From Candidatus Nomurabacteria bacterium (GTDB lineage: Bacteria; Patescibacteriota; Minisyncoccia; Phycocordibacterales; UBA9973), in the NCBI GenBank assembly GCA_026396065.1, contig JAPLXO010000008.1, forward strand, positions 1,056 through 65,055: a stretch of 64,000 nucleotides of DNA, written 5' to 3'. Below, piece by piece: positions 5,720-62,941 of the stretch. Each line of letters begins with the position of its first letter. Position 1 is the first letter of the stretch. The position numbers and the translations under genes are program-made. The notes under the pieces are model-generated. The model made no database searches and was not told where the DNA came from. It worked only from the letters and a program-made list of their open reading frames with translations.

Positions 5720-7108
5720 ATGTGGAAAAAGAGAGTTTTAGCTTTAATAATACTTGCACTTGGCTTTGGAGTCGCTACTTTCGTCTACAAATCTGAATAC
5801 AAAACAAATAAAAATTTTGGGCAAGCTTCACATTTCTTACAAAATCATCAATTTCACCTCGGTTTAGATCTTTCTGGTGGTACTCATTTAATATACAAAG
5901 CTGATGTTTCAGGTGTTCCAGCAGGGCAAATTTCAGATGCCATGGATTCACTCCGTGATGTCATAGAACGTCGTGTGAATCTTTTTGGAGTTTCAGAACC
6001 AGTCGTTCAAGTCGAAGATGGTAGTATCGTCGCACGTGGAGAAGAAAAATTAATTATTGATTTACCAGGAGTCACAGATGTAGAGAAAGCGACAAAAATG
6101 ATTGGAGAGACACCTCTTCTAGAATTTAAAACAGAAGCACCAAAAGGAACAGCCCAAACTGCCACAGTTGGGAAAGATGGAAAAGTTCAGATAGATATAA
6201 ATTCACAATATGTTTCCACAGATCTTACTGGTAGATATTTAAGTAAAGCTACTTTAGAATTTGATCAAAATACTCGTGAACCAAAAGTAAGCCTACAATT
6301 TGACGACACAGGTACAGCACTCTTTGCAAAAATTACAAAAGAAAATGTAGGAAAAACAGTAGCAATCTTTTTAGATGGTTCACCAATTTCGACTCCTGTG
6401 GTTCGTGAAGAAATTCCAAATGGTCAGGCTGTTATTTCTGGAAGTTTCACTCCGACAGAAGCAAAGCAACTTGTAGGCCGCTTAAATTCAGGAGCTTTGC
6501 CTGTTCCAATTTCATTACTTTCAAAGCAAACAATCGGTGGTTCACTTGGTTCTAGTGCTGTAAATGCTGGAGTAAAAGCAGGAATGTTCGGTTTTCTTAT
6601 CATAGCTTTATTTTTAATACTTTGGTACCGTTTACCAGGAATTATTTCTGTAATTTCTCTTGGAATTTATATTTCAATAATGCTCGCTTTGTTTAAATTA
6701 ATTCCTGTTACTTTGACAGCTGCTGGTATCGCTGGATTTATTATTTCTATTGGTATTGCTGTGGATGCAAACGTTCTTATTTTCGAACGTGTAAAAGAAG
6801 AGCTTCGTTTGGGTCATAGTGTTGCAGACGCTGTGAAGGGTGGTTTTGCTCATGCTTGGTTTTCAATTCGTGATTCAAATATTTCAAGTATAATTACTTC
6901 TTTGATTTTATTCTGGTTTGGAACTTCACTTATCAAAGGTTTTGCTTTGACTCTTGGCATGGGTGTTTTAATTTCAATGTTTTCTGCTATCACTATCACT
7001 CGCATATTCCTTTCATCGATTGACTTTGTTGGTAATGGTAAAGTTGCAAGATTTTTATTTAGTTCAGGTTTTGGTTCTGGTGAAAGTAAGCACAGTATAA
7101 ATAATTAA
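5720..7108 (+). CDS. secD: protein translocase subunit SecD
   Basis: LGLDLSGGTHLIY motif, periplasmic domain and C-terminal 6-TM core. Confidence 0.85.
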   Translation: MWKKRVLALIILALGFGVATFVYKSEYKTNKNFGQASHFLQNHQFHLGLDLSGGTHLIYKADVSGVPAGQISDAMDSLRDVIERRVNLFGVSEPVVQVEDGSIVARGEEKLIIDLPGVTDVEKATKMIGETPLLEFKTEAPKGTAQTATVGKDGKVQIDINSQYVSTDLTGRYLSKATLEFDQNTREPKVSLQFDDTGTALFAKITKENVGKTVAIFLDGSPISTPVVREEIPNGQAVISGSFTPTEAKQLVGRLNSGALPVPISLLSKQTIGGSLGSSAVNAGVKAGMFGFLIIALFLILWYRLPGIISVISLGIYISIMLALFKLIPVTLTAAGIAGFIISIGIAVDANVLIFERVKEELRLGHSVADAVKGGFAHAWFSIRDSNISSIITSLILFWFGTSLIKGFALTLGMGVLISMFSAITITRIFLSSIDFVGNGKVARFLFSSGFGSGESKHSINN

Positions 7109-7114
7109 AATAAA

Positions 7115-8014
7115 ATGTTTATAATAAAATACAAAAAAATATTTATCAGTATATCAATAGCATTAGTTATTCTTTCTTTCGCATCTCTTTTTACTTTTGG
7201 TTTGAATTTTGGTATTGATTTCAAAGGTGGAGCTTTGATGGAAGTTACTTATAAAGATGTACGTCCAGCACAAACAGATTTAGATACTTCTTTAAAACCA
7301 CTTAATCTAGGTTCAATATTAATTCAGCCTACAGGTGATTTGGGTTATATAATAAAAACAAAAGATATCTCTGACATTGAACATTCTTCAATTCTTTCAG
7401 CTATTTCAGAAGGAGGTAAGAATGTTCCAGAAGAAAAGAGTTTTTCTTCTATAGGTCCATCAGTAGGAAAAGAACTTACACGTAAAGCAGTGCTAGCTAT
7501 TGTTTTAGTTTCTCTTGGGATTATTTTATTTATAGCTTATGCTTTTCGCAAGGTTTCCAAACCTGTTTCATCTTGGAGATATGGATTTATTGCTATTGTT
7601 ACACTTCTTCACGATGTGATGATTCCAGTTGGTTTATTTACAATTCTTTCACATTATTATGGTGCAGAAGTAGACACTTTATTTGTGGTAGCAATTTTGA
7701 CCGTGCTTGGTCTTTCTGTTTCTGACACTATTGTTGTGTTTGATCGTATTCGTGAAAATATAAAAAATAGAGCTTCTACTGATTTTCATGAAACTGTAGG
7801 TAAAAGTTTAGAGCAAGTTTATCCTCGATCAATCAATACTTCTCTTACTGTTATTTTAGTATTGCTTTGTCTTTTCTTCTTTGGTCCTAGTGCTACAAAA
7901 TACTTTTCTTTAATGATGATTGCCGGAATGTTTTTCGGAACTTATTCCTCAATTTTCCTAGCTTCACCATTACTCGTTTGGATTGAAGAATTTCAAAATA
8001 GAAATAAAAAATAG
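7115..8014 (+). CDS. secF: protein translocase subunit SecF
   Basis: FGIDFKGG motif, TM core, adjacent to secD. Confidence 0.85.
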   Translation: MFIIKYKKIFISISIALVILSFASLFTFGLNFGIDFKGGALMEVTYKDVRPAQTDLDTSLKPLNLGSILIQPTGDLGYIIKTKDISDIEHSSILSAISEGGKNVPEEKSFSSIGPSVGKELTRKAVLAIVLVSLGIILFIAYAFRKVSKPVSSWRYGFIAIVTLLHDVMIPVGLFTILSHYYGAEVDTLFVVAILTVLGLSVSDTIVVFDRIRENIKNRASTDFHETVGKSLEQVYPRSINTSLTVILVLLCLFFFGPSATKYFSLMMIAGMFFGTYSSIFLASPLLVWIEEFQNRNKK

Positions 8015-8086
8015 ACTTAATAAAATCCGCTTTATAGCGGATTTTATGTTATAATTAGTTTATTAATAAATAAACACAATAATCAT

Positions 8087-8638
8087 ATGATGTATCTACT
8101 TATCATTTTAGCCATTATCATTTTATGGGCCATTGTAGCTTTCAACAGTTTTGTTTCATTAAGAAATCGTGCGAAAGAAGCTTGGTCTGATATAGAAGTG
8201 CAATTAAAGCGCCGTTATGACCTTATACCAAATTTGGTGAATACAGTGAAAGGTTATGCTACTCACGAATCTAGCGCCTTTGAAAAGGTGACAGAAGCTC
8301 GTGCAAAGGCAATGAGTGGAGGTGGCACAAGTGAAGCTCATGCCCAAGCAGAAAATATGCTCACAGGAGCATTGAAATCAGTATTCGCTATTGCTGAAGC
8401 TTATCCAGAATTAAAAGCTAATACAAACTTTTTATCATTACAAGCTGAACTTTCAGATACAGAAAATAAAATCCAAGCATCACGAAGATTTTACAATGCC
8501 AATGTTCGTGAACTTAATACAAAGATAGAAATGTTTCCTAGTAGTATTATTGCAAAGATAGGTAATTTCTCTAAAATAGAATTCTTTGATATACCAGATG
8601 ATGGTGTCGAATCAAAGCCAGTGGAAGTTAAGTTTTAA
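8087..8638 (+). CDS. LemA family protein
   Basis: N-terminal TM plus LemA signature (NSFVSLRNRAKEAWSDIEVQLKRRYDLIPNLV). Confidence 0.75.
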   Translation: MMYLLIILAIIILWAIVAFNSFVSLRNRAKEAWSDIEVQLKRRYDLIPNLVNTVKGYATHESSAFEKVTEARAKAMSGGGTSEAHAQAENMLTGALKSVFAIAEAYPELKANTNFLSLQAELSDTENKIQASRRFYNANVRELNTKIEMFPSSIIAKIGNFSKIEFFDIPDDGVESKPVEVKF

Positions 8639-8645
8639 AAAATAT

Positions 8646-9146
8646 ATGCAAAATAATTCAAAAATAAATATTATTTTATTAGTTTTTATTCTAGCATTGA
8701 GTCTTTTTGTTTTGTTTATGGAAAATAAAAACTCAAATATGCTAATGTCTATTTTAGATAAACAGACAGAGAGTTATGTGAAGCCTCAAAAAGCTACTGT
8801 AACAGAAAATCCACTACAAACAGCCAGTTCTGATTTAGTTTCTTTCTCTATTTCACCTAATACAAAAGTCCATGGGATATTATCATATCGTGGTGTTTTG
8901 CAAGGTGGATATTTTTTTGAGGGAAATGTATTAGTAAATATCTTAGATATAAATAAAAAAGTTTTAAAGTCTAGTAATGCTGTAGCAAAAAGTGAGTGGA
9001 TGACTTCTGGTCCCGTGAACTTCGAAGGAAATATTGATTTTACTGGTCTTCCTAAAGGTTCTGCATATTTTGAAATTCATAATGATAACCCTTCCGGTGA
9101 AGCTTCAAAAGATAAAAGTATTTTAATTCCTATAATCATTGAATAA
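8646..9146 (+). CDS. hypothetical exported/membrane-anchored protein
   Basis: ORF with N-terminal TM. Start taken at the internal Met (MQNNSK), since the track start overlaps lemA. Confidence 0.5.
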   Translation: MQNNSKINIILLVFILALSLFVLFMENKNSNMLMSILDKQTESYVKPQKATVTENPLQTASSDLVSFSISPNTKVHGILSYRGVLQGGYFFEGNVLVNILDINKKVLKSSNAVAKSEWMTSGPVNFEGNIDFTGLPKGSAYFEIHNDNPSGEASKDKSILIPIIIE

Positions 9147-9149
9147 AAT

Positions 9150-9284
9150 ATGGACAAGAATAAATTTTGGTTTTTCGGTTCAAAATTAAATACTGCTCTA
9201 CTTCTTATTTTAATTGTGCTTACTGTAATTGCTATTAAAATAATGCTTCAAAATAAAGAAGTCTACTTACCATTTATTAAATAA
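9150..9284 (+). CDS. small single-TM protein (44 aa), unannotated in ORF track
   Basis: ATG-initiated 44-codon ORF ending 2 nt before htpX; hydrophobic core LLLILIVLTVIAI. Confidence 0.3.
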   Translation: MDKNKFWFFGSKLNTALLLILIVLTVIAIKIMLQNKEVYLPFIK

Positions 9285-9286
9285 TA

Positions 9287-10174
9287 ATGGCAACGCTATA
9301 TACACAACAATCAAAAAATATAGAAAAGACATGGCTACTCATGGCTGTGTTTTTGGCTGTGGTTATTGGTGTGGGATATTTTCTTTCTTATTATTATCAA
9401 AATTCTGTGATACTTTATTTTGCAATTATTTTTGCAGTCGTGATGAACTTCGTTTCATATTTGTTTTCAGATAAAATCGTCACGAAGCTCGCCGGCGCAA
9501 AAGAAGTGAAAAGGGAAGAGTATTTTGATCTATATAATATTGTAGAAAATCTAGCTATCACTGCTGGGCTTCCAAAGCCGAAAATTTATATAATTACTGA
9601 TCCTGCACCAAACGCCTTTGCGACTGGGCGCAATCCTGCACACGCTGTGGTGTGTGTGACGACCGGTTTACTTTCAATTTTGGACAAGGCAGAGCTCGAA
9701 GGGGTCATTAGTCACGAGATTTCTCACATTGGGAATAACGACATTTTGCTTTCGACTGTCGCTGCTGTGCTCGTCGGTTTTATTTCTATTTTAGCAAATA
9801 TGTTTACCCATAGTTTATTTTTTGGTGGACGAAGAAGTAACGATCGAGAAGGGAATGGTAATGGAATAATCATGGCGATAGGAATTATTTTAATGATTTT
9901 GTCACCGATAATTGCGACACTTATTCAACTCGCTATTTCTCGCAAGCGTGAATATCTCGCTGATGCTTCGGGTGCACTGCTCACTCGTTATCCAGAAGGC
10001 CTAGCAAGTGCTCTACAAAAAATAGGTAATTATGCACAACCACTTGCTCATCAATCCGAAGCTATCGCTCATCTTTATATTGCTGACCCAAAAGGAAAAA
10101 CTTCTCGAATTAAAAATCTTTTCATGACACATCCACCGATTACAGACAGAATAAAAGCACTTTTAAATAAATAA
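9287..10174 (+). CDS. htpX: M48 family zinc metalloprotease HtpX
   Basis: HEISHIGNND (HExxH) motif, 4 TM, HtpX-like C-terminus. Confidence 0.8.
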   Translation: MATLYTQQSKNIEKTWLLMAVFLAVVIGVGYFLSYYYQNSVILYFAIIFAVVMNFVSYLFSDKIVTKLAGAKEVKREEYFDLYNIVENLAITAGLPKPKIYIITDPAPNAFATGRNPAHAVVCVTTGLLSILDKAELEGVISHEISHIGNNDILLSTVAAVLVGFISILANMFTHSLFFGGRRSNDREGNGNGIIMAIGIILMILSPIIATLIQLAISRKREYLADASGALLTRYPEGLASALQKIGNYAQPLAHQSEAIAHLYIADPKGKTSRIKNLFMTHPPITDRIKALLNK

Positions 10175-10194
10175 GTTTATAGTTTGAAAAATTG

Positions 10195-10281
10195 CGGAGG
10201 GTGAGAGATTCGAACTCTCGGTGGGAGTAACCCCACACAGACTTTCCAGGTCTGCGCACTAGACCGCTATGCGAACCCTCC
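10195..10281 (-). tRNA. tRNA-Ser (anticodon GGA)
   Basis: Reverse complement folds as GGAGGGT acceptor, anticodon stem-loop CAGAC-CTGGAAA-GTCTG, long variable arm, T-arm GAGAG-TTCGAATC-CTCTC. Confidence 0.8.
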
Positions 10282-49983: not shown

Positions 49984-50379
49984 ATGAAAACATATGAATC
50001 ATATCAAGCATTAATAAAGCCGTCTTGGGCACCACCGTCTTATGTCTTTGGTCCGGTGTGAACTTTTCTTTATATTTTAATTTTCATTTCTTTCGGGAAA
50101 GTTTTTATGATGACTTATGAGAAAACTATTCCATTTATCGTAGCTTTGCCATTTATTTTAAATTTAATTTTTAATATTCTTTATACACCTATTATGTTTG
50201 GTTTGAAGAATACTACACTCGCATCACTCGATATTCTCCTCGTCCTCTGCACACTCATTTGGGCTATCATTGCCATTTTCCCTCATGTTCGATGGATTGC
50301 TTATATCCAAATCCCATACTTGGTTTGGGTATGTATTGCGACAACATTGCAGCTCTCTATATATTGGCTAAACAAATAA
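49984..50379 (+). pseudogene. TspO/MBR paralogue with in-frame TGA at the conserved Trp position
   Basis: ATG at 49984 encodes MKTYESYQALIKPSWAPPSYVFGPV-TGA-TFLY; the intact copy at 12720 has GPVWTVLY. Frame continues into ORF 50107-50379. Confidence 0.6.
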
Positions 50380-50392
50380 TTTTTTAGTAAAT

Positions 50393-51037
50393 ATGAAAAA
50401 ATTTCAAAAAATGCTAATAGTTTCTTTTTTAGCACTTTTTCTAGTGCCCGCTTTTACTTTTGCGCATCAACCTCGTATTGTCGAAAGTAGGCAAAATATC
50501 GTGCCAAACCCAGAAATTTCAAAAGCATATTATGCTACTTTGGCTGGTGAGCCAGACGTGTATATTATCAACGCAGATACAGCTTTTGATTTGTATGTAA
50601 ATATTCTCGTGCCAGATATTGCTGGTCAAAAGAAAGATGTCTCTGTCGAGATTTTAAAAGACGGGGATAAAAGCCCGCTCGCTACGCTCGCGGGCCAACC
50701 CTCCGACTGGAAAAAATTCTACGAACCTTTCGGTGCGGATACTTACTGGATGGGTCCTGAATACAAGGCTCGAGCCGAGGCTGGCACATACGAGATTCGT
50801 GTATCGAGCCCAAACAATGATACAAAATATTCACTCGCTATTGGTGAGCTAGAAAAGTTTGATTCTAAAGAGGGGATGAATGCACTCATCTCGATTCCAC
50901 AAATCAAGATGCACTTTTTCAATAAATCATTTTTCAGTATTTTCAAATCACCATTTATCTATGGACCATCTTTGGTTTTGGTAGTAGTAATTATCTTAGT
51001 GATTTTTATTATTAGAAGAATTAAGCATAGGAAATAA
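50393..51037 (+). CDS. hypothetical secreted protein with C-terminal TM anchor
   Basis: Signal peptide MKKFQKMLIVSFLALFLVPAFTFA, C-terminal hydrophobic helix + RRIKHRK. Confidence 0.5.
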   Translation: MKKFQKMLIVSFLALFLVPAFTFAHQPRIVESRQNIVPNPEISKAYYATLAGEPDVYIINADTAFDLYVNILVPDIAGQKKDVSVEILKDGDKSPLATLAGQPSDWKKFYEPFGADTYWMGPEYKARAEAGTYEIRVSSPNNDTKYSLAIGELEKFDSKEGMNALISIPQIKMHFFNKSFFSIFKSPFIYGPSLVLVVVIILVIFIIRRIKHRK

Positions 51038-51038
51038 C

Positions 51039-51479
51039 ATGCAAACAATATCTTTATTTATACTTTTAGCTGGTTTTATTATCGGCCTCGGTGCAGTGAC
51101 TGTGATAGATCTGCATGGATTCCTAGGCCGTAAATCAGCGTATTGGACTGAAGCAACGACTCGCACACACAAAGTCACCAAGCCTTTGATTTGGATTGGA
51201 ATGCTACTCGTAATTATCGGTGGAATATTTTTCTATCGCGGTGTGCCGTTTACAGGTATTTTACTTTTCCATGTCATCTCTGTACCTATTATGCTTTTGA
51301 ATGGCGTTTTCCTTTCTTTTTCTGTGAGTCCGTTCTTACTCAATCGTGAAAAGGAAGGCCGACAAGCCGAACTCTTGCCACAATCTTGGCAGAATAAAAT
51401 AATTTTTTCATTTATGCTTTCGTTTGTTTCATGGTGGGGGAATTTAGCAGTGTTGGTCTATTTCCTCACAATAAAATAA
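51039..51479 (+). CDS. hypothetical membrane protein
   Basis: 4 TM ORF. Confidence 0.45.
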   Translation: MQTISLFILLAGFIIGLGAVTVIDLHGFLGRKSAYWTEATTRTHKVTKPLIWIGMLLVIIGGIFFYRGVPFTGILLFHVISVPIMLLNGVFLSFSVSPFLLNREKEGRQAELLPQSWQNKIIFSFMLSFVSWWGNLAVLVYFLTIK

Positions 51480-51480
51480 A

Positions 51481-51996
51481 ATGTCTTTCAAAAAGAAAAA
51501 AGTAATAGTGAATGATGAAATGCAGAAAAAGTATGTATACTTTTTGACTGAGCCTGTGGGTAAACATTTCGATCCTGATTTCAAGCCAGATCTGACGCCC
51601 AAGGAAATGCTTTCCTTGGGCGTCTTCGGTGGCCGCTACCTCACCGATTGTAAAAAAGAATTTCCAAAAGACTGGTTCACTCGTGCGAAACTTTCTCCAC
51701 ATCATCATGATAAAAAATTAAATTATTTCGGTGTCGATGCGAGCCAGTCCTTATCAACCTGGAAGAAAAATGGATGGATTCACCCTATGGACCCGCGTGG
51801 CTGGTTTCAATGGTATTGCCGGTATTATATGGGACGAAGAATTCCCGATGAAGATGCACGACAAATAAAACGCTGGCGGATGATGCGACGACATGTCGCC
51901 CAAATACACAACAATTGCCGAGTAGGGGATATTTTCTGTCGCCCCCGCCAACGCCAAGCCCTCCTCCACTGGGCGTATGATAGTAGAAAGATTTGA
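51481..51996 (+). CDS. hypothetical protein, compositional outlier (GC-rich, Arg/Trp-rich)
   Basis: 171-aa ORF whose GC content is visibly higher than flanking genes. Confidence 0.5.
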   Translation: MSFKKKKVIVNDEMQKKYVYFLTEPVGKHFDPDFKPDLTPKEMLSLGVFGGRYLTDCKKEFPKDWFTRAKLSPHHHDKKLNYFGVDASQSLSTWKKNGWIHPMDPRGWFQWYCRYYMGRRIPDEDARQIKRWRMMRRHVAQIHNNCRVGDIFCRPRQRQALLHWAYDSRKI

Positions 51997-52017: not shown

Positions 52018-52524
52018 ATGGAAAATAACTATGCCTTTATAGATGGTCAAAACCTGTATCTAGGAACACAAGCAGAGAATTTTGATTTAGATCTAGCTCG
52101 CTTTAGGATTTACTTAAAAGAGAAATATAAAGTAAGCGTAGCTTATTATTTTTTAGGTTGTATATTTGATGCAAATACAGAATTGTATGATGAAATACAG
52201 AAAGCTGGTTTTGTCCTAAAATTTAGAGAACATAATTCAAATATGATAGGCAATAAAAAGGGTAATGTCGATACGGATGTTGTTTTTGAAATGATGCGTA
52301 GTTTGATAAATGAAAACCAAATGTCTAAAATAGTTCTAGTGTCTGGTGATGGTGATTATAAAAAAGTTGTTGACTATTTGATTAAAAAAGATAAATTTTT
52401 AAAAATACTTTTTCCTAACAATCGCTACTCTTCTTTGTATAAAGAAATCACTGTAAAATATTTTGATAAATTGTGTGATGAACACGTAAGATCAAAAATT
52501 GAGCAAAAGAAAAAGCGAACTTAG
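52018..52524 (+). CDS. NYN domain protein (LabA-like PIN-fold nuclease family)
   Basis: AFIDGQNLYLG N-terminus and VLVSGDGDYKKVVDYL motif. Confidence 0.7.
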   Translation: MENNYAFIDGQNLYLGTQAENFDLDLARFRIYLKEKYKVSVAYYFLGCIFDANTELYDEIQKAGFVLKFREHNSNMIGNKKGNVDTDVVFEMMRSLINENQMSKIVLVSGDGDYKKVVDYLIKKDKFLKILFPNNRYSSLYKEITVKYFDKLCDEHVRSKIEQKKKRT

Positions 52525-52673: not shown

Positions 52674-52798
52674 TTTACATTTGTAAGTAAAGTCAACTAT
52701 TTGTGAAAATAGTATTTGAGGTTATTTAATATTGAAAAATCCTTAAAAATAAGGTCAAATTTTGAAATTTCCTTAAAATGTGCTATAATTGTGAGGTT

Positions 52799-55180
52799 AT
52801 GGATAAAAAATCCCTTACAGAACAAGATATTTGTTCAAAATACGTTCTACCAGCAATTCTCGATTCAGGATGGGATTTACATACTCAAATACGTGAACAA
52901 TGGACATTCACTTCCGGCAGAATTATGGTTCATGGAAAAACTATTTCTCGCGGTGATAAAAAGCGTGCTGATTTTATTTTATATTACAAAAACAATTTCC
53001 CAATAGCTGTCGTTGAAGCAAAAGATAATACACATTCTGCTGGAGCAGGTCTCGAACAAGCAAAACAATATGCAGAAATTTTAAATATTCCATTTGCGTA
53101 TAGTACCAATGGTGATGAATTTGTAGAATATGATTTTTTAATTGGTACAGAAAAAACTTTTCCATTAAATGAATTTCCAGATCGAGAAGAATTAATGCGT
53201 CGTTTCTCAGAATCAAAAGATTACAATCAAGAACAAAAAGAAGTAATTCTTCAAGATTATTTTATAGATCCTTCAGGTAAGGGGCCTCGTTATTATCAAG
53301 AAAATGCTATAAACAAAGTTGTCGAAGCTGTAGCCAAAGGAAAAGATAGACTTCTTTTAGTAATGGCAACCGGAACAGGAAAGACATATACAGCATTTCA
53401 GATAATTTACAGACTTTGGAAATCAAAGAAAAAGAAAAGAATTTTATTTCTCGTAGATCGTACAGCTTTGGCTCAACAGACAATGCAAGGTGACTTTCGT
53501 CATTTTGGTGGAGCGATGACTCGTATTAAAAATGGTACAGTAGATAAAGCATATGAGATTTATGTTGCTTTATATCAAGGTCTCACTGGTGGTAGTAATT
53601 CTGAAAATGATATAGAAGCTGAAGAAGAAAAGAAAAAACTCTTTCAAGAATTTTCTCCTAATTTTTTTGATCTTATTGTTGTAGACGAGTGTCATCGTGG
53701 TAGTAGTAATGAAAATAGTGCATGGAGAGAAATTTTGAATCACTATACTAGTGCAACACAGATTGGTATGACTGCTACACCAAAAGAAACCACCGATATG
53801 AGTACTGAGGAATACTTTGGTAAGTCTGTATATACATATTCATTAAAACAAGGTATTGATGATGGATTCCTTGCACCATATAAGGTTATTCGTTATAGAT
53901 TCAATAACGACGAATGGCGTCCGATAGAAGGTTTTCGTGACGTAAATGGAGAAATTGTTCCTGATGAGATTTATACCGAAGGTATGTTTGACCGTACTAT
54001 CATTATAGATGAACGTAATAGAGCAGTAGCAAAATGTATTGCAGATTTTATGAGAGATACTGATGTGTATCAGAAAACAATTGTTTTCTGTGTTGATATC
54101 GCACATGCAGAGCGTATGCGTACTTGTTTGACGAATGAATTAAAAGAACAAACAAAAGAAAATTCTAGATTTATAGTAAAGATAACAGGGGATGATACTT
54201 TTGGAAAAATGGAAATTGAAAATTTTATTAATCCCGAATCTCGATATCCAGTTATCGCGACGACTTCAAAGCTTCTTTCTACTGGAGTTGATACAAAGAC
54301 AGTTAAACTCATTGTCCTTGATTCACCTATGAATTCAATGACAGAATTCAAGCAAATCATTGGTCGTGGTACACGTGTCGAAGAGCAATACGGAAAATAT
54401 TATTTTACTATTATGGATTTTAGAAATGTTACTCGTCTTTTTGCTGACAAAGATTTCGATGGTGATCCTGTGAAAGTCTATGATGTTGATGGAAAAGATC
54501 CTGTTGATATTGAGAGCTTGATGAACGAAGAAACAAGGTCTGAAGAAATGATAAAAGAATTAGATCCGTTGGCTGAAGTTTTGATTGATGGTACTCAAAC
54601 AGAAGAAAAACCAAAAAAGATTCGTATCAAAGACGGAGTTGATTTTTATCCTATTCATCAAGAAGTAAAATATATCGATCCGAAGACAGGTAAACTCATT
54701 ACTGAATCATTAAAAGATTTTTCAAAGAAAACAATTATTTCTGAGTATGCATCTATTGATGAATTTCTGACTCGTTGGAAAGAAATAGAAAGAAAAGACA
54801 TCATCGTAAATGAATTACTCGATCGCGGTGTTGCTTTTGAAGAGCTTCGTAAAGAATCCGGTAAAGACCTCGATGTGTTTGATTTGATTTTACATGTTGC
54901 CTATGGCAAGAAGCCGATGACTCGTAGTGAAAGAGTTAAAAAAGTTCACGCAAATGATTATTTTGGAAAATATGAAGGCAAAGCAAGGGAAATAATAGAC
55001 TTATTACTTACAAAATATACAGACCAAGGTATTACTGCTATTGATGGTATTGAAGATTTGATGGTTTCTCCATTTACCGACTATGGTACTCCTATAGAAA
55101 TAGTTGAGGATATTTTTGGAGGTAGAGAATCCTATATGGAAGTTATCAAAAACATAGAAAATAGTTTATACTCAGATTAA
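52799..55180 (+). CDS. hsdR: type I restriction enzyme R subunit
   Basis: N-terminal HsdR nuclease region, helicase motifs VMATGTGKTYTA and VVDECHRG (DEAH), motif VI QIIGRGTR. Confidence 0.85.
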   Translation: MDKKSLTEQDICSKYVLPAILDSGWDLHTQIREQWTFTSGRIMVHGKTISRGDKKRADFILYYKNNFPIAVVEAKDNTHSAGAGLEQAKQYAEILNIPFAYSTNGDEFVEYDFLIGTEKTFPLNEFPDREELMRRFSESKDYNQEQKEVILQDYFIDPSGKGPRYYQENAINKVVEAVAKGKDRLLLVMATGTGKTYTAFQIIYRLWKSKKKKRILFLVDRTALAQQTMQGDFRHFGGAMTRIKNGTVDKAYEIYVALYQGLTGGSNSENDIEAEEEKKKLFQEFSPNFFDLIVVDECHRGSSNENSAWREILNHYTSATQIGMTATPKETTDMSTEEYFGKSVYTYSLKQGIDDGFLAPYKVIRYRFNNDEWRPIEGFRDVNGEIVPDEIYTEGMFDRTIIIDERNRAVAKCIADFMRDTDVYQKTIVFCVDIAHAERMRTCLTNELKEQTKENSRFIVKITGDDTFGKMEIENFINPESRYPVIATTSKLLSTGVDTKTVKLIVLDSPMNSMTEFKQIIGRGTRVEEQYGKYYFTIMDFRNVTRLFADKDFDGDPVKVYDVDGKDPVDIESLMNEETRSEEMIKELDPLAEVLIDGTQTEEKPKKIRIKDGVDFYPIHQEVKYIDPKTGKLITESLKDFSKKTIISEYASIDEFLTRWKEIERKDIIVNELLDRGVAFEELRKESGKDLDVFDLILHVAYGKKPMTRSERVKKVHANDYFGKYEGKAREIIDLLLTKYTDQGITAIDGIEDLMVSPFTDYGTPIEIVEDIFGGRESYMEVIKNIENSLYSD

Positions 55181-55183
55181 TAT

Positions 55184-56605
55184 ATGTCATCCCAAATTCA
55201 ATCAATCATAAAAAATATTCAAGATGAAATGCGCAAAGACGCAGGGCTCGATGGTGATGCACAACGTATCTCACAGCTTGTATGGATGCTATTCTTGAAA
55301 ATTTTTGATGACCGTGAAAAGAACTTGGAACTCATTGATCCAAAATATGTTTCTCCAATTCCTGAAAAATTCCGTTATCGTAATTGGGCTGTTGATGATG
55401 AAGGCATCACTGGCCAAGATCTTGCAGACTTCATCGATAAAGAGCTTTTCCCTGCACTCAAAAATCTTTCCATTTCCGATACTGATACTCGTGGATTCTT
55501 GATAAAGAATATCTTTACTGATACGTATAACTATATGAAGAATGGTACGCTCATTCGTAAAGTTTTTAATAAAATAAATGAAATAAATTTCAATAAAAAA
55601 GACGACCGTCATGCATTCGGAGATTTGTATGAAAAGATTTTGAAAGATCTTCAAAATGCTGGAAATGCAGGGGAGTTCTATACACCACGCCCACTGACGA
55701 AATTCGTGGTAGATATGGTCGATCCAAAGTTTGGTGATACAATCCTCGATCCTGCATGTGGCACAGGAGGATTCCTCGTCAATGCACTCGAGCATATGCG
55801 TGCTGGTGTAAAAACTGCAAATGATGAAAAGAAACTACATTCATTCGTAAACGGTGTAGAGCTCAAACCACTTCCACACATGCTCGCTATTACAAATATG
55901 ATTCTCCATGGAGTTGAAGACCCCTCTACTATTCTTCGTGGCGATATGCTTTCTCGTCCATATACTGATTATGGTCCGAAAGATCGCGTCGATGTTATTC
56001 TTGCAAATCCACCTTTCGGGGGTACTGTTACTGATGGCACAGAATTAAATTTCCCATCACAATTCCGCACAAAAAGTACTGCAGAATTATTTCTTGTTTT
56101 ATTTGTTCACTTATTAAAAGATGGCGGTAGGGCTGGTATAGTTTTACCCGATGGGTCTTTATTTGGTGATGGAGTTATTGCAAAGGTTAGAGAATATCTT
56201 ATGACTGAATGTAACCTTCACACTATTGTCCGTCTTCCTCCGGGAGTTTTCAATCCATATGCAGGAGTAAATACAAACTTACTCTTTTTCACTAAAGGTG
56301 AGCCTACAAAAGAAGTTTGGTATTACCAGATGAAGCTTCCAGCTGGACTTCGTGCTTATACAAAGACCAAGCCTATTACAGATGCAGAATTTGATACAGT
56401 CAAAGAATGGTGGAAAAATCGTGCCGATTTTTCCACCGACAACGCATGGTGTGTTTCCATCGAAGACATAAAAGCTAAAAATTGGAATTTGGACTTCAAG
56501 AATCCAAAGGGTGGGGAAGTAGAGGAAGAATTCGGGTCGAAAGAATTGGTTGAGAGAATTTTTGGAAAAGAAGAGGAAATTAAAAAGATTTTGAAGAATA
56601 TATAA
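55184..56605 (+). CDS. hsdM: type I restriction-modification N6-adenine DNA methyltransferase subunit
   Basis: HsdM N-terminal domain, motif I DPACGTGGFL, motif IV ILANPPFGG. Confidence 0.85.
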   Translation: MSSQIQSIIKNIQDEMRKDAGLDGDAQRISQLVWMLFLKIFDDREKNLELIDPKYVSPIPEKFRYRNWAVDDEGITGQDLADFIDKELFPALKNLSISDTDTRGFLIKNIFTDTYNYMKNGTLIRKVFNKINEINFNKKDDRHAFGDLYEKILKDLQNAGNAGEFYTPRPLTKFVVDMVDPKFGDTILDPACGTGGFLVNALEHMRAGVKTANDEKKLHSFVNGVELKPLPHMLAITNMILHGVEDPSTILRGDMLSRPYTDYGPKDRVDVILANPPFGGTVTDGTELNFPSQFRTKSTAELFLVLFVHLLKDGGRAGIVLPDGSLFGDGVIAKVREYLMTECNLHTIVRLPPGVFNPYAGVNTNLLFFTKGEPTKEVWYYQMKLPAGLRAYTKTKPITDAEFDTVKEWWKNRADFSTDNAWCVSIEDIKAKNWNLDFKNPKGGEVEEEFGSKELVERIFGKEEEIKKILKNI

Positions 56606-56606
56606 T

Positions 56607-57062
56607 ATGGATGAGCAAATCATTAAAATTAAAACAATAATGACAGAAGTTTCTACTGGAGTTGCTAGAATTCAAGAGATGAATGACACTTATAAAGTTT
56701 TATATAAAGAAATTGCTAGTTATTGCAAAGAATATAGTATCAAAAATACTAACCCGTATTCTGATTTATGGGAATTTTATAGTTATTGGTCAAAAAAACT
56801 TCCTAAATATTCTGATAGAAGATCATATATTATTGAGTTATATAAAAAATTTGGTTTAGGAAAAGAACAAAAGAAGAATTTACGAATTACTACATTTTAT
56901 GTAAATAAAGATAGGATTAAAGAAATACAAAAAATTAAATCTTTGTCCTTTGATTTCAAAAAATTATCAAAACTTTGTGAAGAAATAAATATTTTGGGTA
57001 TAAAAATTTTTCAGATGTATGTGCACAATATGGTAAAAAAAGTTTTAAAGAAGTATCATTAA
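56607..57062 (+). CDS. hypothetical protein embedded in type I RM operon (gene A)
   Basis: 151-aa ORF starting 1 nt after hsdM stop; no motif recognised. Confidence 0.5.
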   Translation: MDEQIIKIKTIMTEVSTGVARIQEMNDTYKVLYKEIASYCKEYSIKNTNPYSDLWEFYSYWSKKLPKYSDRRSYIIELYKKFGLGKEQKKNLRITTFYVNKDRIKEIQKIKSLSFDFKKLSKLCEEINILGIKIFQMYVHNMVKKVLKKYH

Positions 57063-57208
57063 GGCTTAATGAATCTTCGAGGAAGATTGCTGATTCTTAT
57101 TTACATGATCCTATAAGAAAAAAAGAAACACTACCAAATAAAACACAAGTTAACTTTTCTCAAGAGCTCGATTATGTATTATCAGAAATGTTGTCTCTTA
57201 CTTAATAT

Positions 57209-58726
57209 ATGAAAGAAAATGAAGCAAAAATACACTTTTCAGATTTTTTTAAGGTAAGTCATGATTTAGTTGAGAATTATGGTGCTCTTGATATATCACT
57301 TCTATCAGATAATCCTGCTTTCGTGGATCCATTTTTAATTTTCTATAGTAAAAAAAGTGAATACGAAGTGTTGCATAAGCAGATTATTGAATATATTTTT
57401 TTCTTAAAAAGAAATAGTGATAATGGTAATTATTTAGAAACTAATTATAAATTTCCAGAAGTTAGCCAAACATGGTTAGGATATTCAAGACATGGAAATA
57501 AAGGGAGAGGTCTTGGTCCGAAGTTTGCTAAAGAGTTAGATAAAAATTTGACGGAAATATTTTTTGAATTACAAGATAGTAAAATTACTAAAAGTCCACA
57601 TTTAGAAAAACTTTGTCTAGTTGCTAAGGGTGTTGGGGTTGATAATATTAGTGATTTTACACTTAATCTTGTTAAAGGTTATTTAATTAAATATACAAAA
57701 AATTTTTGTAAGGAAAATGTCAATCCTAAATTTTTAAACGATTTTGGTATTTCTAGAATTGAATTTGATTTTGAAAAAGGAATTTGGATTGATGGAGTGG
57801 CAAGTTTGCCATTCATTTATAATGAAAAAGGATTGAAAGAATACGTATTATTAACTCCTAAGGATATTTTAGTAAAAGAAGAAGATTGGATTTCAAAAAG
57901 CGATTTTCTTAAACATGACAGTGTTATTTTAAATAGAATTGATAATCAGGATTTAAGAGATAAAATTAATCAATATTTTAATGCATTGATTCCAGTTAAA
58001 ATAAACAAAAAAGGTAAAAAAGTTCCGGATAATTCTCAAAAAAATAGAAAAGAAGCGTTAATAGAAACTGCTAAAAAATATACAATATTATTAGAGTATT
58101 ATATACGATATAAAGAAAATGAAGGATCTCCTGTTGTTAAAAGAAACTTAGAGGATGTTTCTTTGATTAAAGATATTTTTTACTCAGAAGCAAGAAAAAT
58201 TGTGTCTGAATTAAAAAATGACACAGAATTTTATAAAAAACCACTTTCTTCACTCGAAGAAAGTATCAAGAAAATAAAGATATTTAAACATTATCTAGAG
58301 GACAGGAATAACTGTAGAATCTTTTGGGATGGTGAAAAGTTAAAAAAAATAAAAGAAGATGATATTGGAATATTATTAGATCTTATTTTTAACGAATCTT
58401 TGTTTTCTGTCGATAATCAAGTAAATAATGGCAGAGGTCCTTCTGATGTAAAAGTTTCAATGGGTAGAAAAGATTGTACTATTATTGAAATAAAACTTGC
58501 GTCAAATCCGCAAATGCCTAAAAATCTAAAAAATCAATTAGATATTTATAAAAAAGCTAACGATACTTACAATGGTGTCTATCTCATTGTATATTTTACA
58601 AATGATGAAAAAGTTAAGATGGAAATTTTATTAAAAAAGTTAAATATGTTTATATATATTGATAAATATATATTTCTTATTGATTGTCGAAAAAAGATTT
58701 CTGCATCTAAAGTAAATGAACTATGA
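57209..58726 (+). CDS. hypothetical protein embedded in type I RM operon (gene B), C-terminal PD-(D/E)xK-like motif
   Basis: 505-aa ORF; C-terminal region has hydrophobic-D (IGILLDLIF) then TIIEIKLAS (ExK). Its stop overlaps the hsdS start (ATGA). Confidence 0.5.
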   Translation: MKENEAKIHFSDFFKVSHDLVENYGALDISLLSDNPAFVDPFLIFYSKKSEYEVLHKQIIEYIFFLKRNSDNGNYLETNYKFPEVSQTWLGYSRHGNKGRGLGPKFAKELDKNLTEIFFELQDSKITKSPHLEKLCLVAKGVGVDNISDFTLNLVKGYLIKYTKNFCKENVNPKFLNDFGISRIEFDFEKGIWIDGVASLPFIYNEKGLKEYVLLTPKDILVKEEDWISKSDFLKHDSVILNRIDNQDLRDKINQYFNALIPVKINKKGKKVPDNSQKNRKEALIETAKKYTILLEYYIRYKENEGSPVVKRNLEDVSLIKDIFYSEARKIVSELKNDTEFYKKPLSSLEESIKKIKIFKHYLEDRNNCRIFWDGEKLKKIKEDDIGILLDLIFNESLFSVDNQVNNGRGPSDVKVSMGRKDCTIIEIKLASNPQMPKNLKNQLDIYKKANDTYNGVYLIVYFTNDEKVKMEILLKKLNMFIYIDKYIFLIDCRKKISASKVNEL

Positions 58727-59910
58727 AAACTAATTGGCAAACAAAAAAACTAAGTGAAGTTTGTACTATTGTTGGTGGTGGTACACCAAAAACTGGAATT
58801 TTCGAATATTGGGATGGTGATTTATGTTGGGTAACTCCCAAAGATCTTGGAAGACTTGATGGTTTTGAAATTTCGGAAACAGAAAGAAAAATTTCTGAAA
58901 TAGGACTTAAAAATTCTTCAGCACAAAAATTACCAATTGGTTCAGTAATTCTTTCTTCTCGTGCACCAATTGGTTATGTTGTTATTAATACAGTACCAAT
59001 GGCAACAAATCAAGGTTGTCGTAGTTTTGTTTGTGGTGCTTATATTTTTAATAAATATTTATATTATTTTCTTATTTCAAATACAGAGTTATTAAATTCA
59101 TTAGGTAGTGGCTCAACATTTTTAGAGGTTTCTGGTTCAAGGTTAAAAGAAATTGAAATTCCACTCCCATCACTCGAAACTCAAAAGAAAATCGTGGAGA
59201 TTTTGGATGAGAAATTTGCAAAGATTCGTGAAGCGAAAAGTTTACGTGAACAATCCATCACCGACACAGAAAAAATCCTTTCCCAAACTCTTCGTGAAAT
59301 TTTTGAAGAGGGTAAAGAAAAAGGATGGGAAGAAGATATTTTAAATAATGTTGCTGCAAAAGTTGCAGATGGTACACATGATACACCAAAATATCAATCA
59401 AAAGGTTTTCCTCTAATCACTTCAAAAAATCTTCTAGAATCTGGTCTAGATTTTTCTAATATAAAGTATATTTCTGAAGAAGATTATATTCAGATTAAAC
59501 AAAGATCAGGAGTAAATAAAGGAGACTTGCTTATTGCAATGATTGGAACTATTGGAAATATAACGAGAGTAGAAACAGAACAAAAATTTAGTATTAAAAA
59601 TGTTGGACTTATTAAACCAGATGAAGATAAGGTTTTAGGTAAATATATAATGTATTTTTTACATAATTCTAGATTGATGTCTTTGATAGAAAGTAAGGGT
59701 GCTACACAGAAATTTATTGCACTTGGACCAATTAGAAATATAAAAATTAAATTTCCATCACTTACAGAACAGAAGAAAATTGTAGAAAGATTAGATGCAC
59801 TTTCAGAAAAAATTCGACAAATGGTAGATTTGCAAAAATCACAACTTGAAGATTTTAAAAAATTAGAAAAATCATATCTCCGCGAAGCCTTCAACGGGGA
59901 ATTGATATAA
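58723..59910 (+). CDS. hsdS: type I restriction-modification specificity subunit
   Basis: Two target-recognition domains separated and followed by the conserved repeats IPLPSLETQKKIVEILDEKFAKI and IKFPSLTEQKKIVERLDALSEKI. Confidence 0.85.
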   Translation: MKTNWQTKKLSEVCTIVGGGTPKTGIFEYWDGDLCWVTPKDLGRLDGFEISETERKISEIGLKNSSAQKLPIGSVILSSRAPIGYVVINTVPMATNQGCRSFVCGAYIFNKYLYYFLISNTELLNSLGSGSTFLEVSGSRLKEIEIPLPSLETQKKIVEILDEKFAKIREAKSLREQSITDTEKILSQTLREIFEEGKEKGWEEDILNNVAAKVADGTHDTPKYQSKGFPLITSKNLLESGLDFSNIKYISEEDYIQIKQRSGVNKGDLLIAMIGTIGNITRVETEQKFSIKNVGLIKPDEDKVLGKYIMYFLHNSRLMSLIESKGATQKFIALGPIRNIKIKFPSLTEQKKIVERLDALSEKIRQMVDLQKSQLEDFKKLEKSYLREAFNGELI

Positions 59911-60251: not shown

Positions 60252-61292
60252 ATGTTCACATATAATATAAGTATGAAGAAAGTAATTAAAAAAATACAAA
60301 AGAATACAAAAAACGACTTAGTCATTTATCAAGCAAAGTCAGGGGCTATTGAGTTCCGTGGTGATTTTAATAAGGAGACTATTTGGGCTACACAGGCGCA
60401 AATCGCTGAGATTTTCGGTGTTAATTCACAAGCGATAACAAAACATATAACTAATATTTATAAAGAAAAAGAACTTAGTCAAAAGGCAACTTGTTCCAAA
60501 ATGGAACAAGTTCGAATGGAAGGTAACAGACAAATTAAAAGAAATTTAGATATATATAACTTAGATATTGTTATTGCAGTTGGATATAGAATTAATTCAA
60601 AAATTGCCACTCAATTTCGTATCTGGGCTACAAAGACTCTTCGTGAGCATATTGTAAAAGGTTATACCGTAAACGAAAAGAGATTGCTTCAAGTTACAGA
60701 TAAATTCAGAGAATTACAAAATACTGTTTTGTTCTTGCAGGAAAAATCTCAGAAAGAATTACTTTCAGGCCAAGAAAACGAAGTTTTGAATTTACTCGCA
60801 TCTTATGCAAAGACTCTCACTATCCTCGATGAATATGACAAGGGAGATTTAAAACAAGTCAAAGGAGAAAAAGCAAAATTTATTTTAACTTATGAAAAAT
60901 CCATAGAGATACTCGTCGAAGTTAAAAAAGAATTGATGGCAAAAGGCGAAGCAGGAGAACTTTTTGGAAATGAACGCGATGGATCTTTTGATGGAATAAT
61001 AAAAGGCTTGTATCAGACATTTGGTGGTAAAGAATTATATGCAACGCTTGAAACTAAAGCAGCGCATTTACTGTACCTCATCATCAAAGATCATCCGCTT
61101 TCAGATGGTAACAAGCGTACAGCGTCTTTCCTGTTTGTATATTTCTTGGACAAGAATAATGCACTTTATAGAAAAAATGGAGAAAAGAAAATAAACGACA
61201 ACGCGCTCGCTGCGCTCGCGCTCCTCATTGCCGAAAGTAATCCAAATGAAAAGGATATTATGGTGGCTCTTATAACGCAGTTATTAAATTAA
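60252..61292 (+). CDS. RhuM-family N-terminal domain fused to Doc/Fic-family toxin domain
   Basis: N-terminal RhuM-like blocks (IEFRGDFNKETIWATQAQIAEIFGV, IVIAVGYRINSKIATQFRIWATK); C-terminal Doc-type motif HPLSDGNKRTA. Confidence 0.7.
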   Translation: MFTYNISMKKVIKKIQKNTKNDLVIYQAKSGAIEFRGDFNKETIWATQAQIAEIFGVNSQAITKHITNIYKEKELSQKATCSKMEQVRMEGNRQIKRNLDIYNLDIVIAVGYRINSKIATQFRIWATKTLREHIVKGYTVNEKRLLQVTDKFRELQNTVLFLQEKSQKELLSGQENEVLNLLASYAKTLTILDEYDKGDLKQVKGEKAKFILTYEKSIEILVEVKKELMAKGEAGELFGNERDGSFDGIIKGLYQTFGGKELYATLETKAAHLLYLIIKDHPLSDGNKRTASFLFVYFLDKNNALYRKNGEKKINDNALAALALLIAESNPNEKDIMVALITQLLN

Positions 61293-61777: not shown

Positions 61778-62668
61778 ATGGCAAAAATACCAGCAGTATT
61801 TAATAAAATTAACTCTCTTAGGGAGAGATATTACAAAGCTTCTACTGGTAAAGAAGCGCTTATTAATCTTGTCAGTGAAGCCGAAGTCGCTGAACAAGTG
61901 TATAACTCAAATGCTATTGAAAATAGCACTCTAACACTCGAGGAAACAGAAAAAATTCTTTTGCAAATTGATCTCGATAGATATATCAACGAGCGCGAGA
62001 TTTTTGAAGCTAAAAATCTCGCGCGAGTGGTGTCATATATCGAAAAACGTTCGAAAGAACAAGATCTAACTCTCGAAGTAATATTGTCACTTCATAAAAT
62101 GTTGATTTCAAATATTCGCGATGATATCGCAGGTAGATTTCGAAAAGATAAAGAATTTGTACGAGTAGGTAGTCATATTGCTCCTTCTCCACAAGAAATA
62201 CTTGAGAGACTAGAGAACATGCTTGCAGAATACAATGCAAATAGCCACGAAAGTATTGTGAAGCGTATTGCGCGACTACATCTAGTATTTGAGCATACTC
62301 ATCCATTTGTCGATGGTAATGGACGTATCGGACGTGTATTAAACAATTATCTTTTAATTCGTGAAGGATTTGTCCCTATCAATATTAAATTTATAGATCG
62401 TAAGAAATATTATAATGCGTTTAAAGAATTTGATGAAAAAGGAAAAACAAAAATAATGGAAGAAATTGTCGCTAAAGCTTTGACCAATAGTTATCACAAA
62501 CGTTTAGCGTATTTAGAAAATAAAAAAATTGTTACATTAGTAGAATATGCAAAATCTAATAAGATTTCTCATTCAAATCTTATTAACAAAGCTACTCGTC
62601 AAACAATTGATGCTTTTTTAGAAAAAGGTATTTGGAAAATTGGTATTGAATATAATAAGACTAAATAA
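61778..62668 (+). CDS. Fic family protein (adenylyltransferase-type)
   Basis: Canonical Fic motif HPFVDGNGRIGR. Confidence 0.85.
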   Translation: MAKIPAVFNKINSLRERYYKASTGKEALINLVSEAEVAEQVYNSNAIENSTLTLEETEKILLQIDLDRYINEREIFEAKNLARVVSYIEKRSKEQDLTLEVILSLHKMLISNIRDDIAGRFRKDKEFVRVGSHIAPSPQEILERLENMLAEYNANSHESIVKRIARLHLVFEHTHPFVDGNGRIGRVLNNYLLIREGFVPINIKFIDRKKYYNAFKEFDEKGKTKIMEEIVAKALTNSYHKRLAYLENKKIVTLVEYAKSNKISHSNLINKATRQTIDAFLEKGIWKIGIEYNKTK

Positions 62669-62674
62669 AATCTA

Positions 62675-62941
62675 ATGCCAAACAAATACGAACAAAAAGC
62701 CGAAATAGAAATAGATTTACACGGATACACGATGCTTGAGGCGGGGAGTGTTTTAGACGATTTATTTCGTGAAGCAAAGTACAAACATGTCAGAATAATT
62801 ACAGGCAAAGGCAAGAATAGCGAGAATGGTCCCGTCTTGCCGAACTTTGTGCGAAACTATTTGAATTCCCGCGGGGTGCATTACAATCAATCCAAACTTC
62901 AATCCGGCGGCGAAGGCGCACTCGAGGTTTTTCTCCGTTAA
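62675..62941 (+). CDS. Smr domain protein (intact copy)
   Basis: 88 aa: IDLHGYTMLEA, VRIITGKGKNS, GGEGALEVFL Smr-domain blocks. Confidence 0.75.
   Translation: MPNKYEQKAEIEIDLHGYTMLEAGSVLDDLFREAKYKHVRIITGKGKNSENGPVLPNFVRNYLNSRGVHYNQSKLQSGGEGALEVFLR

Follow-up and report, generated by a model that had tools for sequence, protein, structure and literature searches.

A type I restriction-modification (R-M) operon of a Candidatus Nomurabacteria bacterium, carried on the 64,000-nucleotide stretch of DNA analysed here (the window; positions 1,056 to 65,055 of contig JAPLXO010000008.1, assembly GCA_026396065.1), holds two additional genes, A and B, at the junction between hsdM and hsdS. The R-M operon is intact and the two passengers are unrelated to each other. 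The best explanation, with a probability of about 0.6, is that both are independently mobile cargo of a defence type, of which gene A is dead in this genome and gene B is an intact, predicted nuclease. The locus is an ordinary small defence island in which independent cargo has been stacked, not the site of a two-gene module.

The host operon is complete at the level of its domains. HsdR retains both the superfamily 2 (SF2) helicase/translocase core and the N-terminal nuclease region, and the Pfam matches of HsdR, HsdM and a two-domain HsdS are those of a type I R-M system. The open reading frame (ORF) of hsdR begins at 52778, with 52799 being the second in-frame ATG; the orthologue in locus L001, a close relative, is 794 amino acids (aa) long. 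One base separates the hsdM stop codon (TAA, 56603-56605) from the ATG of gene A at 56607, and at the far end the stop of gene B and the start of hsdS overlap in the ATGA at 58723-58726. A preliminary description of this DNA had given the gene order hsdR, hsdM, A, B, hsdS and both of these junctions, and the ORF map, the Pfam matches and a reading of the sequence agree with it; the 1-nucleotide spacing after hsdM and the ATGA overlap likewise uphold its view that the inserts are embedded in the R-M operon. Genes A and B are real genes and not chance ORFs, each having more than 2,000 homologous protein clusters. Their G+C content (∼26% across positions 56500-58999) compared with 33-39% in hsdR and hsdM is consistent with an origin of the cargo other than that of the Hsd genes.

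The distribution of the two families is what separates A from B. A survey of B took one genome per species, and none of the 78 species-level loci fetched has a gene A homologue; gene B is likewise missing from all 80 metagenomic A loci. The closest relatives of gene B (78-80% identity) lie between hsdM and hsdS with overlapping stops and starts and without gene A, in the layouts hsdR-hsdM-B-hsdS (L001), hsdR-Fic-hsdM-B-hsdS (L172) and hsdM-B-hsdS (L173). The slot between hsdM and hsdS is held by B alone in L001, L003, L012, L172 and L173, by A alone (hsdM-A-hsdS) in L007, L008 and L137, and by A and B together in the window and L011 only, the intact A of L011 ending 4 nucleotides before B. A fragment following A in L007 was considered as a possible B homologue and rejected, as it is hsdS. 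A slot that holds A, B or both is the pattern expected of independent cargo. The pairing of A and B as a module, put forward in the preliminary description, does not survive this survey: across hsdMS loci, joint embedding is found in the window and L011 only, and A is inactivated in the former.

Gene B is identical to P0001, a hypothetical protein of a Candidatus Nomurabacteria metagenome-assembled genome (MAG). The precomputed Pfam annotation of P0001 and of all 120 listed homologues includes both DUF8370 (PF28123) and DUF8371 (PF28130), which makes gene B a member of these families; both are function-unknown domains to which no activity, structure or role has been assigned, and neither is mentioned in the literature searched. 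The Pfam scan of gene B itself was empty because the release scanned lacks the DUF8370 and DUF8371 models. At its C-terminus, gene B has the alpha-beta-beta-beta-alpha-beta core of a PD-(D/E)xK nuclease, with the D...(D/E)-x-K residues on strands 2/3 and an acidic residue in helix 1. The predicted catalytic residues, E383 (58355), D413 (58445) and E427-x-K429 (58487-58495), are invariant among 33 B-family sequences and kept in the window copy, and nine of these 33 give a weak match to Pfam PDDEXK_9. Judged from its sequence, gene B is intact and encodes a C-terminal PD-(D/E)xK nuclease domain with a complete E...D...ExK site and predicted activity. The N-terminal ∼375 residues have their own set of invariant positions (D34, D40, H56, E84, H131, E133, K134, D145 and D149), and the window copy keeps every one of the family's invariants. 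This region has no detectable relative among PDB sequences, the scanned Pfam release or NCBIfam, and searches of PDB sequences with gene B, both as a single sequence and as a profile, returned nothing. Two PHROGs are matched by gene B, both function-unknown; beyond these, local Pfam, NCBIfam and PHROGs gave nothing informative for A or B. AIPR, Abi_C and DUF4145 are not matched at E ≤ 1 by any of the 33 B-family members.

The N-terminal half also resembles a PADLOC profile, PDC-M36A, which gene B matches with an E value of 2.1e-17 (positions 10-241 of the 457 in the profile, aligned with residues 12-253). In B, as in four other members scanned one by one, the N-terminal ∼240 residues match the first half of this profile, with E values of 2e-13 to 6e-22. 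Because the match is limited to the first half (∼8-248 of 457 profile positions) and the C-terminal halves differ, B represents a sister family and not PDC-M36A itself. The defence-island-like context of B is a further likeness to PDC-M36, which is a multi-gene computational candidate system. PDC-M36 is not matched by gene A, by the RhuM-Fic ORF downstream of hsdS or by five B neighbours (in L003, L005, L174 and L175), the Hsd genes having been outside the PADLOC scan. The PADLOC search suggested for this locus has returned a partial match for B, and neither a full-length PDC-M36A nor, among the ORFs scanned, partner genes. No published validation of PDC-M36 was found in the literature searched, which also held nothing relevant on PDC-S35, PDC-S23, the 9wx2 'Dandelion' HEPN or genes between hsdM and hsdS. 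By its presumed mode of action, a sensor joined to PD-(D/E)xK in a single chain, B can be likened to Shedu SduA and to type IV enzymes of the Mrr/MspJI type. It does not belong to these families: B has no DUF4263, Mrr_cat or other Pfam match, and as far as tested its N-terminal domain shows no relation to known readers.

B is carried by at least 558 species, ranging over Patescibacteria, Proteobacteria, Firmicutes, Bacteroidota, Verrucomicrobiota and Acidobacteriota, and by plasmids. Type I genes lie within 10 kb of B in 20 of the 78 species-level loci (directly adjacent in 10 of them) and in 24 of the 82 loci used for a tree. Among 69 upstream neighbours of B, Pfam identifies Methylase_S in seven, N6_Mtase in three and HsdR in two, and the remainder are other defence or mobile-element genes; neighbours of B also include a Schlafen-type helicase, type ISP, DUF499, an OLD/AriA-like ATPase, resolvase and integrase. 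When R-M linkage is mapped on the tree, built by neighbour joining from 82 B proteins, it changes state 12 times, against 20.9 ± 1.6 times in 1,000 permutations. Linkage to R-M is inherited within clades, that of the window included, yet it has been gained or lost many times. Even within type I loci the layout varies, as in hsdM-B-hsdS...hsdR (L003) and hsdM-hsdS-OLD/AriA-like ATPase-B-247aa-hsdR (L005). In the latter locus (6182-10241), B sits between hsdS and hsdR and is flanked by an OLD/AriA/GajA-like ABC ATPase of 598 aa and a 247-aa protein without a family match, which may constitute a different multi-gene arrangement around B.

From these properties we infer that gene B is active as a nuclease, serves defence and acts autonomously. 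It would be co-transcribed with the methyltransferase genes, and in close relatives probably also translationally coupled to them. Sensing or binding of a trigger or target would fall to its N-terminal domain and the cutting of DNA to its nuclease domain, making gene B a candidate self-contained DNA nuclease effector that supplies a second layer of defence from the M-S transcript. It would act independently of gene A, and the Hsd proteins are probably dispensable for it: most B loci persist without Hsd genes, and B is therefore probably not Hsd-dependent.

The chief rival reading is a different relationship with the Hsd proteins, modelled on PrrC, in which HsdM/HsdS or the whole HsdRMS complex restrains B in the R-M-embedded clades and phage anti-restriction releases it as a suicide or second-line nuclease. 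The position of B between hsdM and hsdS, with 4-nucleotide overlaps on both sides in L001 and L173, is what such an arrangement might look like; the R-M linkage is phylogenetically clustered and not random, the share of B loci near type I genes (∼26-29%) is well above the level of a random gene, and PrrC/EcoprrI provides a precedent (PMC3710099). However, in ∼70% of the B loci sampled, type I genes were not detected within 10 kb, linkage is inferred to have been gained or lost at least 12 times among the 82 sequences, and B also occurs as lone transposon or plasmid cargo or beside unrelated methyltransferase/helicase systems, indicating that it is tolerated without Hsd. Interaction with Hsd proteins is hypothetical, and guarding of B by the R-M complex is considered unlikely. 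Equally doubtful is a broader proposal that joins several of these elements: the DUF8370-DUF8371 protein B would be a new, widespread single-protein anti-phage nuclease whose novel N-terminal sensor is common to PDC-M36A-type proteins with other C-termini; in the clade from the candidate phyla radiation (CPR)/Patescibacteria it would be an integral, translationally coupled part of the M-S operon, restrained by the methyltransferase complex as a DNA-cutting analogue of the PrrC guard; and gene A would belong to a large family of HEPN RNases, of at least 2,100 clusters, that Pfam lacks.

Gene A, under the explanation preferred here, is the inactivated member of the stack. When intact homologues are compared with the window by tblastn, two high-scoring segment pairs (HSPs) in different frames are obtained: residues 1-128 of P0122, the closest homologue of the window copy, correspond to 56607-56990, and residues 154-222 to 56993-57199 with 77% identity. 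Residues 129-153 of P0122 have no counterpart in the window, a difference of 25 codons + 1 nucleotide and a loss of ∼73 nucleotides. From 56981 onwards the +2 frame has no stop before the TAA at 57204-57206, and the ATG of gene B follows 2 nucleotides on. The preliminary description had read this region as a 151-aa gene A followed by a 146-nucleotide gap. Because the +2 frame is open and contains the second HSP, the gap is the out-of-frame 3′ part of gene A, and the region is the pseudogene of one ∼223-aa gene with a ∼73-nucleotide deletion and a frameshift. A query in which the frames are joined finds ∼223-aa homologues that span the whole query, with identities of up to 55%. In the alignment, the window copy lacks the block that holds a nearly invariant R..H.PP segment, and the invariant R-x4-H is among the residues deleted. 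What is missing is the last part of predicted helix 1, helix 2 in full and the beginning of the insert that follows; with the 3′ third of the gene shifted, helices 3 and 4 are out of frame, so that the window copy, lacking residues 129-153 and frameshifted in the remainder, does not encode an intact HEPN domain. The lesion is recent, as the out-of-frame part is still highly identical to its homologues. It may also have left its mark on gene B, which would now be preceded by 146 untranslated nucleotides, possibly removing a translational coupling of the kind suggested by L011. Programmed frameshifting or phase variation at an A7 run (57035-57041) was rejected as the cause, since 25 codons are gone at 56990/56993 and there is no 1-nucleotide slip.

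It could be argued that gene A is intact in the organism, that the 73-nucleotide deletion and frameshift are an artefact of metagenome assembly and that the operon has two functional passengers. One MAG contig is the sole source of the sequence, and the out-of-frame 3′ part is free of further stops in addition to its 77% identity, so that any inactivation must be very recent. The usual assembly error, however, is a homopolymer indel, unlike the loss of 73 nucleotides. The nearby TspO gene, which has an in-frame stop as well, fits real decay and fits a noisy consensus equally. An assembly artefact is, on this evidence, improbable.

The family to which gene A belonged is large (at least 2,123 protein clusters at E ≤ 1e-3), and Pfam annotation is absent from all its listed homologues. 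Its invariant residues, in the numbering of P0122, are R103, D116, E126, R144, H149, D187, H191, E198 and Q205; distant relatives have only the C-terminal ∼125 residues in common and their N-termini are variable. Intact homologues model as HEPN proteins, with a four-helix up-down bundle and an insert between helices 2 and 3. The HEPN counterparts listed for the family are Csm6 at 8.3, AbiA at 8.3 and Csx1-Crn2 at 8.2, together with the HEPN toxins 5yep, 7ae2 and 8xdj, the sacsin HEPN, 1wol and 4nqf; Foldseek gave no significant match. No Pfam, NCBIfam or PHROG HEPN model is matched by the gene A family, and a profile search of PDB sequences reached the N-terminal helices of 9wx2 ('Dandelion-hepn') with a sub-threshold E value of 0.13. 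Two Arg/His motifs are present, R144-x4-H149 at the end of predicted helix 2 and R183-x7-H191 where helix 3 ends, and the canonical HEPN motif is Rx4-6H at the end of helix 3 (PMC3710099). A HEPN fold is a reasonable assignment for these models, and either Arg/His pair may be the catalytic one.

Many HEPN families are embedded in R-M operons, with RhuM and Fic/DOC proteins as companions (Anantharaman et al. 2013, PMC3710099), and gene A would be a dead, HEPN-fold predicted RNase of this long-known kind. Like the R-M-embedded HEPN proteins AbiJ, Abi2/AbiD/AbiF, AbiU2, ApeA and PrrC/RloC, the A family has a HEPN-like four-helix fold in which an insert separates helices 2 and 3, as well as conserved Arg/His residues, and it recurs beside hsdR, hsdM and hsdS; its variable N-termini ahead of a conserved C-terminal core also recall AbiJ (PMC3710099). 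It differs in having R-x7-H in place of R-x4-6-H at the canonical position and, unlike PrrC/RloC, no ABC ATPase: no PrrC/RloC or ATPase match was found in genes A or B with Pfam, NCBIfam or PADLOC, and homologues of ∼223 aa are below the length needed for the PrrC/RloC ATPase-HEPN architecture. AIPR, Abi_C (AbiJ) and DUF4145 match neither the reconstructed A (E ≤ 10) nor the 45 A-family members (E ≤ 0.01). The PADLOC profile PDC-S35 is matched by four of these 45 (best E 1.4e-8) and not by most members, P0122 included, so that likeness to PDC-S35 is limited to this minority and likeness to 9wx2 to its sub-threshold hit. The preliminary description had recognised no motifs of the known R-M-embedded passenger families in either protein. 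This stands in that no AIPR, PrrC, Abi_C, DUF4145 or housekeeping homology is seen, and gives way in that A models as HEPN and B is a DUF8370 + DUF8371 protein with a PD-(D/E)xK domain and a PDC-M36A-like N-terminus. Its suggestion of defence-type passengers is similarly divided: both families have nuclease folds and defence-type contexts, A is dead here and there is no new paired system. Type I genes adjoin A in 8 of the 80 A loci (seven of the eight in the close full-length subfamily), where A follows hsdR or hsdM or precedes hsdS. Outside R-M operons, A is also found in the company of toxin-type genes: at L009 (4764-7693), where there is no Hsd gene, an intact homologue is encoded downstream of genes for a RhuM and a Zeta-toxin protein.

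Gene B likewise occurs away from type I operons. On the Sinorhizobium meliloti plasmid pSmeSM11a (L174, 369-8790), B and a 453-aa hypothetical protein have a transposase/resolvase pair of the Tn3 family on one side and an IS256 element on the other, and the two genes look like transposon cargo on a conjugative plasmid. On plasmid pA of Paenarthrobacter ureafaciens (L175, 80-7455), B comes last of four overlapping genes in one operon, after those for a DNA methyltransferase, a DEAD/DEAH helicase and a GIY-YIG nuclease; B also joins methyltransferase systems other than type I. All plasmid copies of B are annotated 'hypothetical protein'. Among 50,697 records of cultured phages none matches B, which is rare in IMG/VR (12 contigs). 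The presence of B in a Tn3-family transposon, on conjugative plasmids and in those IMG/VR contigs, together with its two function-unknown PHROGs, could point to a nuclease that works for DNA repair or for a mobile element, for example in homing or in the maintenance of a transposon or plasmid, and that merely lands in R-M operons. Such a role is quite improbable for a protein that recurs across many phyla in operons with R-M or other defence genes and that shares homology over its N-terminal half with a defence candidate of PADLOC; no consistently flanking repeats or integrase were noticed, in an inspection that was not systematic. That A and B together make up a single new defence module of two genes linked to R-M, for instance a sensor with its effector or a toxin with its antitoxin, is very improbable and largely refuted by the distribution: the two adjoin in one operon here and stand 4 nucleotides apart in L011, but they are otherwise found without each other, the closest B relatives and the A-only slots included, and here A is a pseudogene next to a B with all its invariant residues.

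Several points weigh against reading the locus as independent cargo with a dead gene A and an intact nuclease B. The gene A deletion could be a MAG assembly error, as its sequence is on one contig only. In the A family, R-x4-H is found where predicted helix 2 ends, and R-x7-H occupies the canonical position at the end of helix 3. The N-terminal domain of gene B, unmatched in PDB sequences, the scanned Pfam release and NCBIfam, has no assigned role. R-M linkage is clustered on the B tree and the clade of the window is consistently R-M-embedded with overlapping stop and start codons, so that B may be functionally coupled to HsdM/HsdS in this clade. Both families are without experimental work.

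The neighbourhood of the operon carries further genes of defence or toxin type (Table 1). Directly downstream of hsdS is a RhuM-Fic/DOC fusion, and an association of RhuM-DOC with R-M operons has been documented (PMC3710099). Past this fusion are a Fic-domain protein (61778-62668) and then a small Smr-domain protein (62675-62941), and with them the defence/toxin island reaches past the coordinates reported. A NYN-domain protein of 168 aa with a predicted RNase fold (52018-52524) is encoded in the same orientation immediately upstream of hsdR; Pfam matches none of the three ORFs that precede it (50393-51996). The TspO/MBR gene (49984-50379) has an in-frame TGA at 50059-50061, at the site of a conserved Trp (GPVW) in the L001 orthologue, and ORF callers give it as a 90-aa C-terminal fragment only (50107-50379). 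It is an apparent second pseudogene near the island, or a consensus error; an alternative genetic code is unlikely, as TGA serves as a stop elsewhere, including in gene B.

Table 1. Coordinates of the R-M operon, its passengers and the adjoining fusion gene in the window
Feature	Position	Strand	Basis or remark
hsdR, type I restriction subunit, 800 aa, intact	52778..55180	+	Pfam ResIII 5.6e-43, EcoEI_R_C 1.4e-27, HSDR_N/HSDR_N_2, Helicase_C
hsdM, N6-adenine methyltransferase subunit, 473 aa, intact	55184..56605	+	Pfam N6_Mtase 2.8e-68, HsdM_N 1.9e-10
Gene A ORF, 151 aa	56607..57062	+	ORF map
Gene A pseudogene, HEPN-like	56607..57206	+	Frame 0 56607-56990, frame +2 56993-57206
Deletion/frameshift junction within gene A	56988..56993	+	HSP1 ends 56990, HSP2 begins 56993
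Gene B ORF, 505 aa	57209..58726	+	ORF map
Gene B N-terminal region, residues 1-∼375: DUF8370-type domain and long helical linker	57209..58331	+	Precomputed Pfam PF28123; PDC-M36A
Gene B C-terminal predicted PD-(D/E)xK nuclease domain, DUF8371-type	58334..58726	+	Conserved catalytic residues
hsdS, specificity subunit, 395 aa, two target-recognition domains	58723..59910	+	Pfam Methylase_S 6.1e-45, 2 stretches
RhuM-Fic/DOC fusion, directly downstream of hsdS	60252..61292	+	Pfam Virulence_RhuM 2.6e-25, Fic 2.8e-10; PADLOC PDC-S23 7.6e-122

The composition of this locus is typical of defence islands and involves no new principle. Two parts of it are worth pursuing: the B family, and the absence of the A family from Pfam. 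Should B-type proteins prove to be defence nucleases, the catalogue would gain a single-gene system that is very widespread and has an uncharacterised sensor domain. The hsdM-hsdS junction would be recorded as a reusable docking slot for A, B or both and, as CPR bacteria have tiny genomes and few known defences, cargo stacked in an R-M operon offers a useful view of their immunity.

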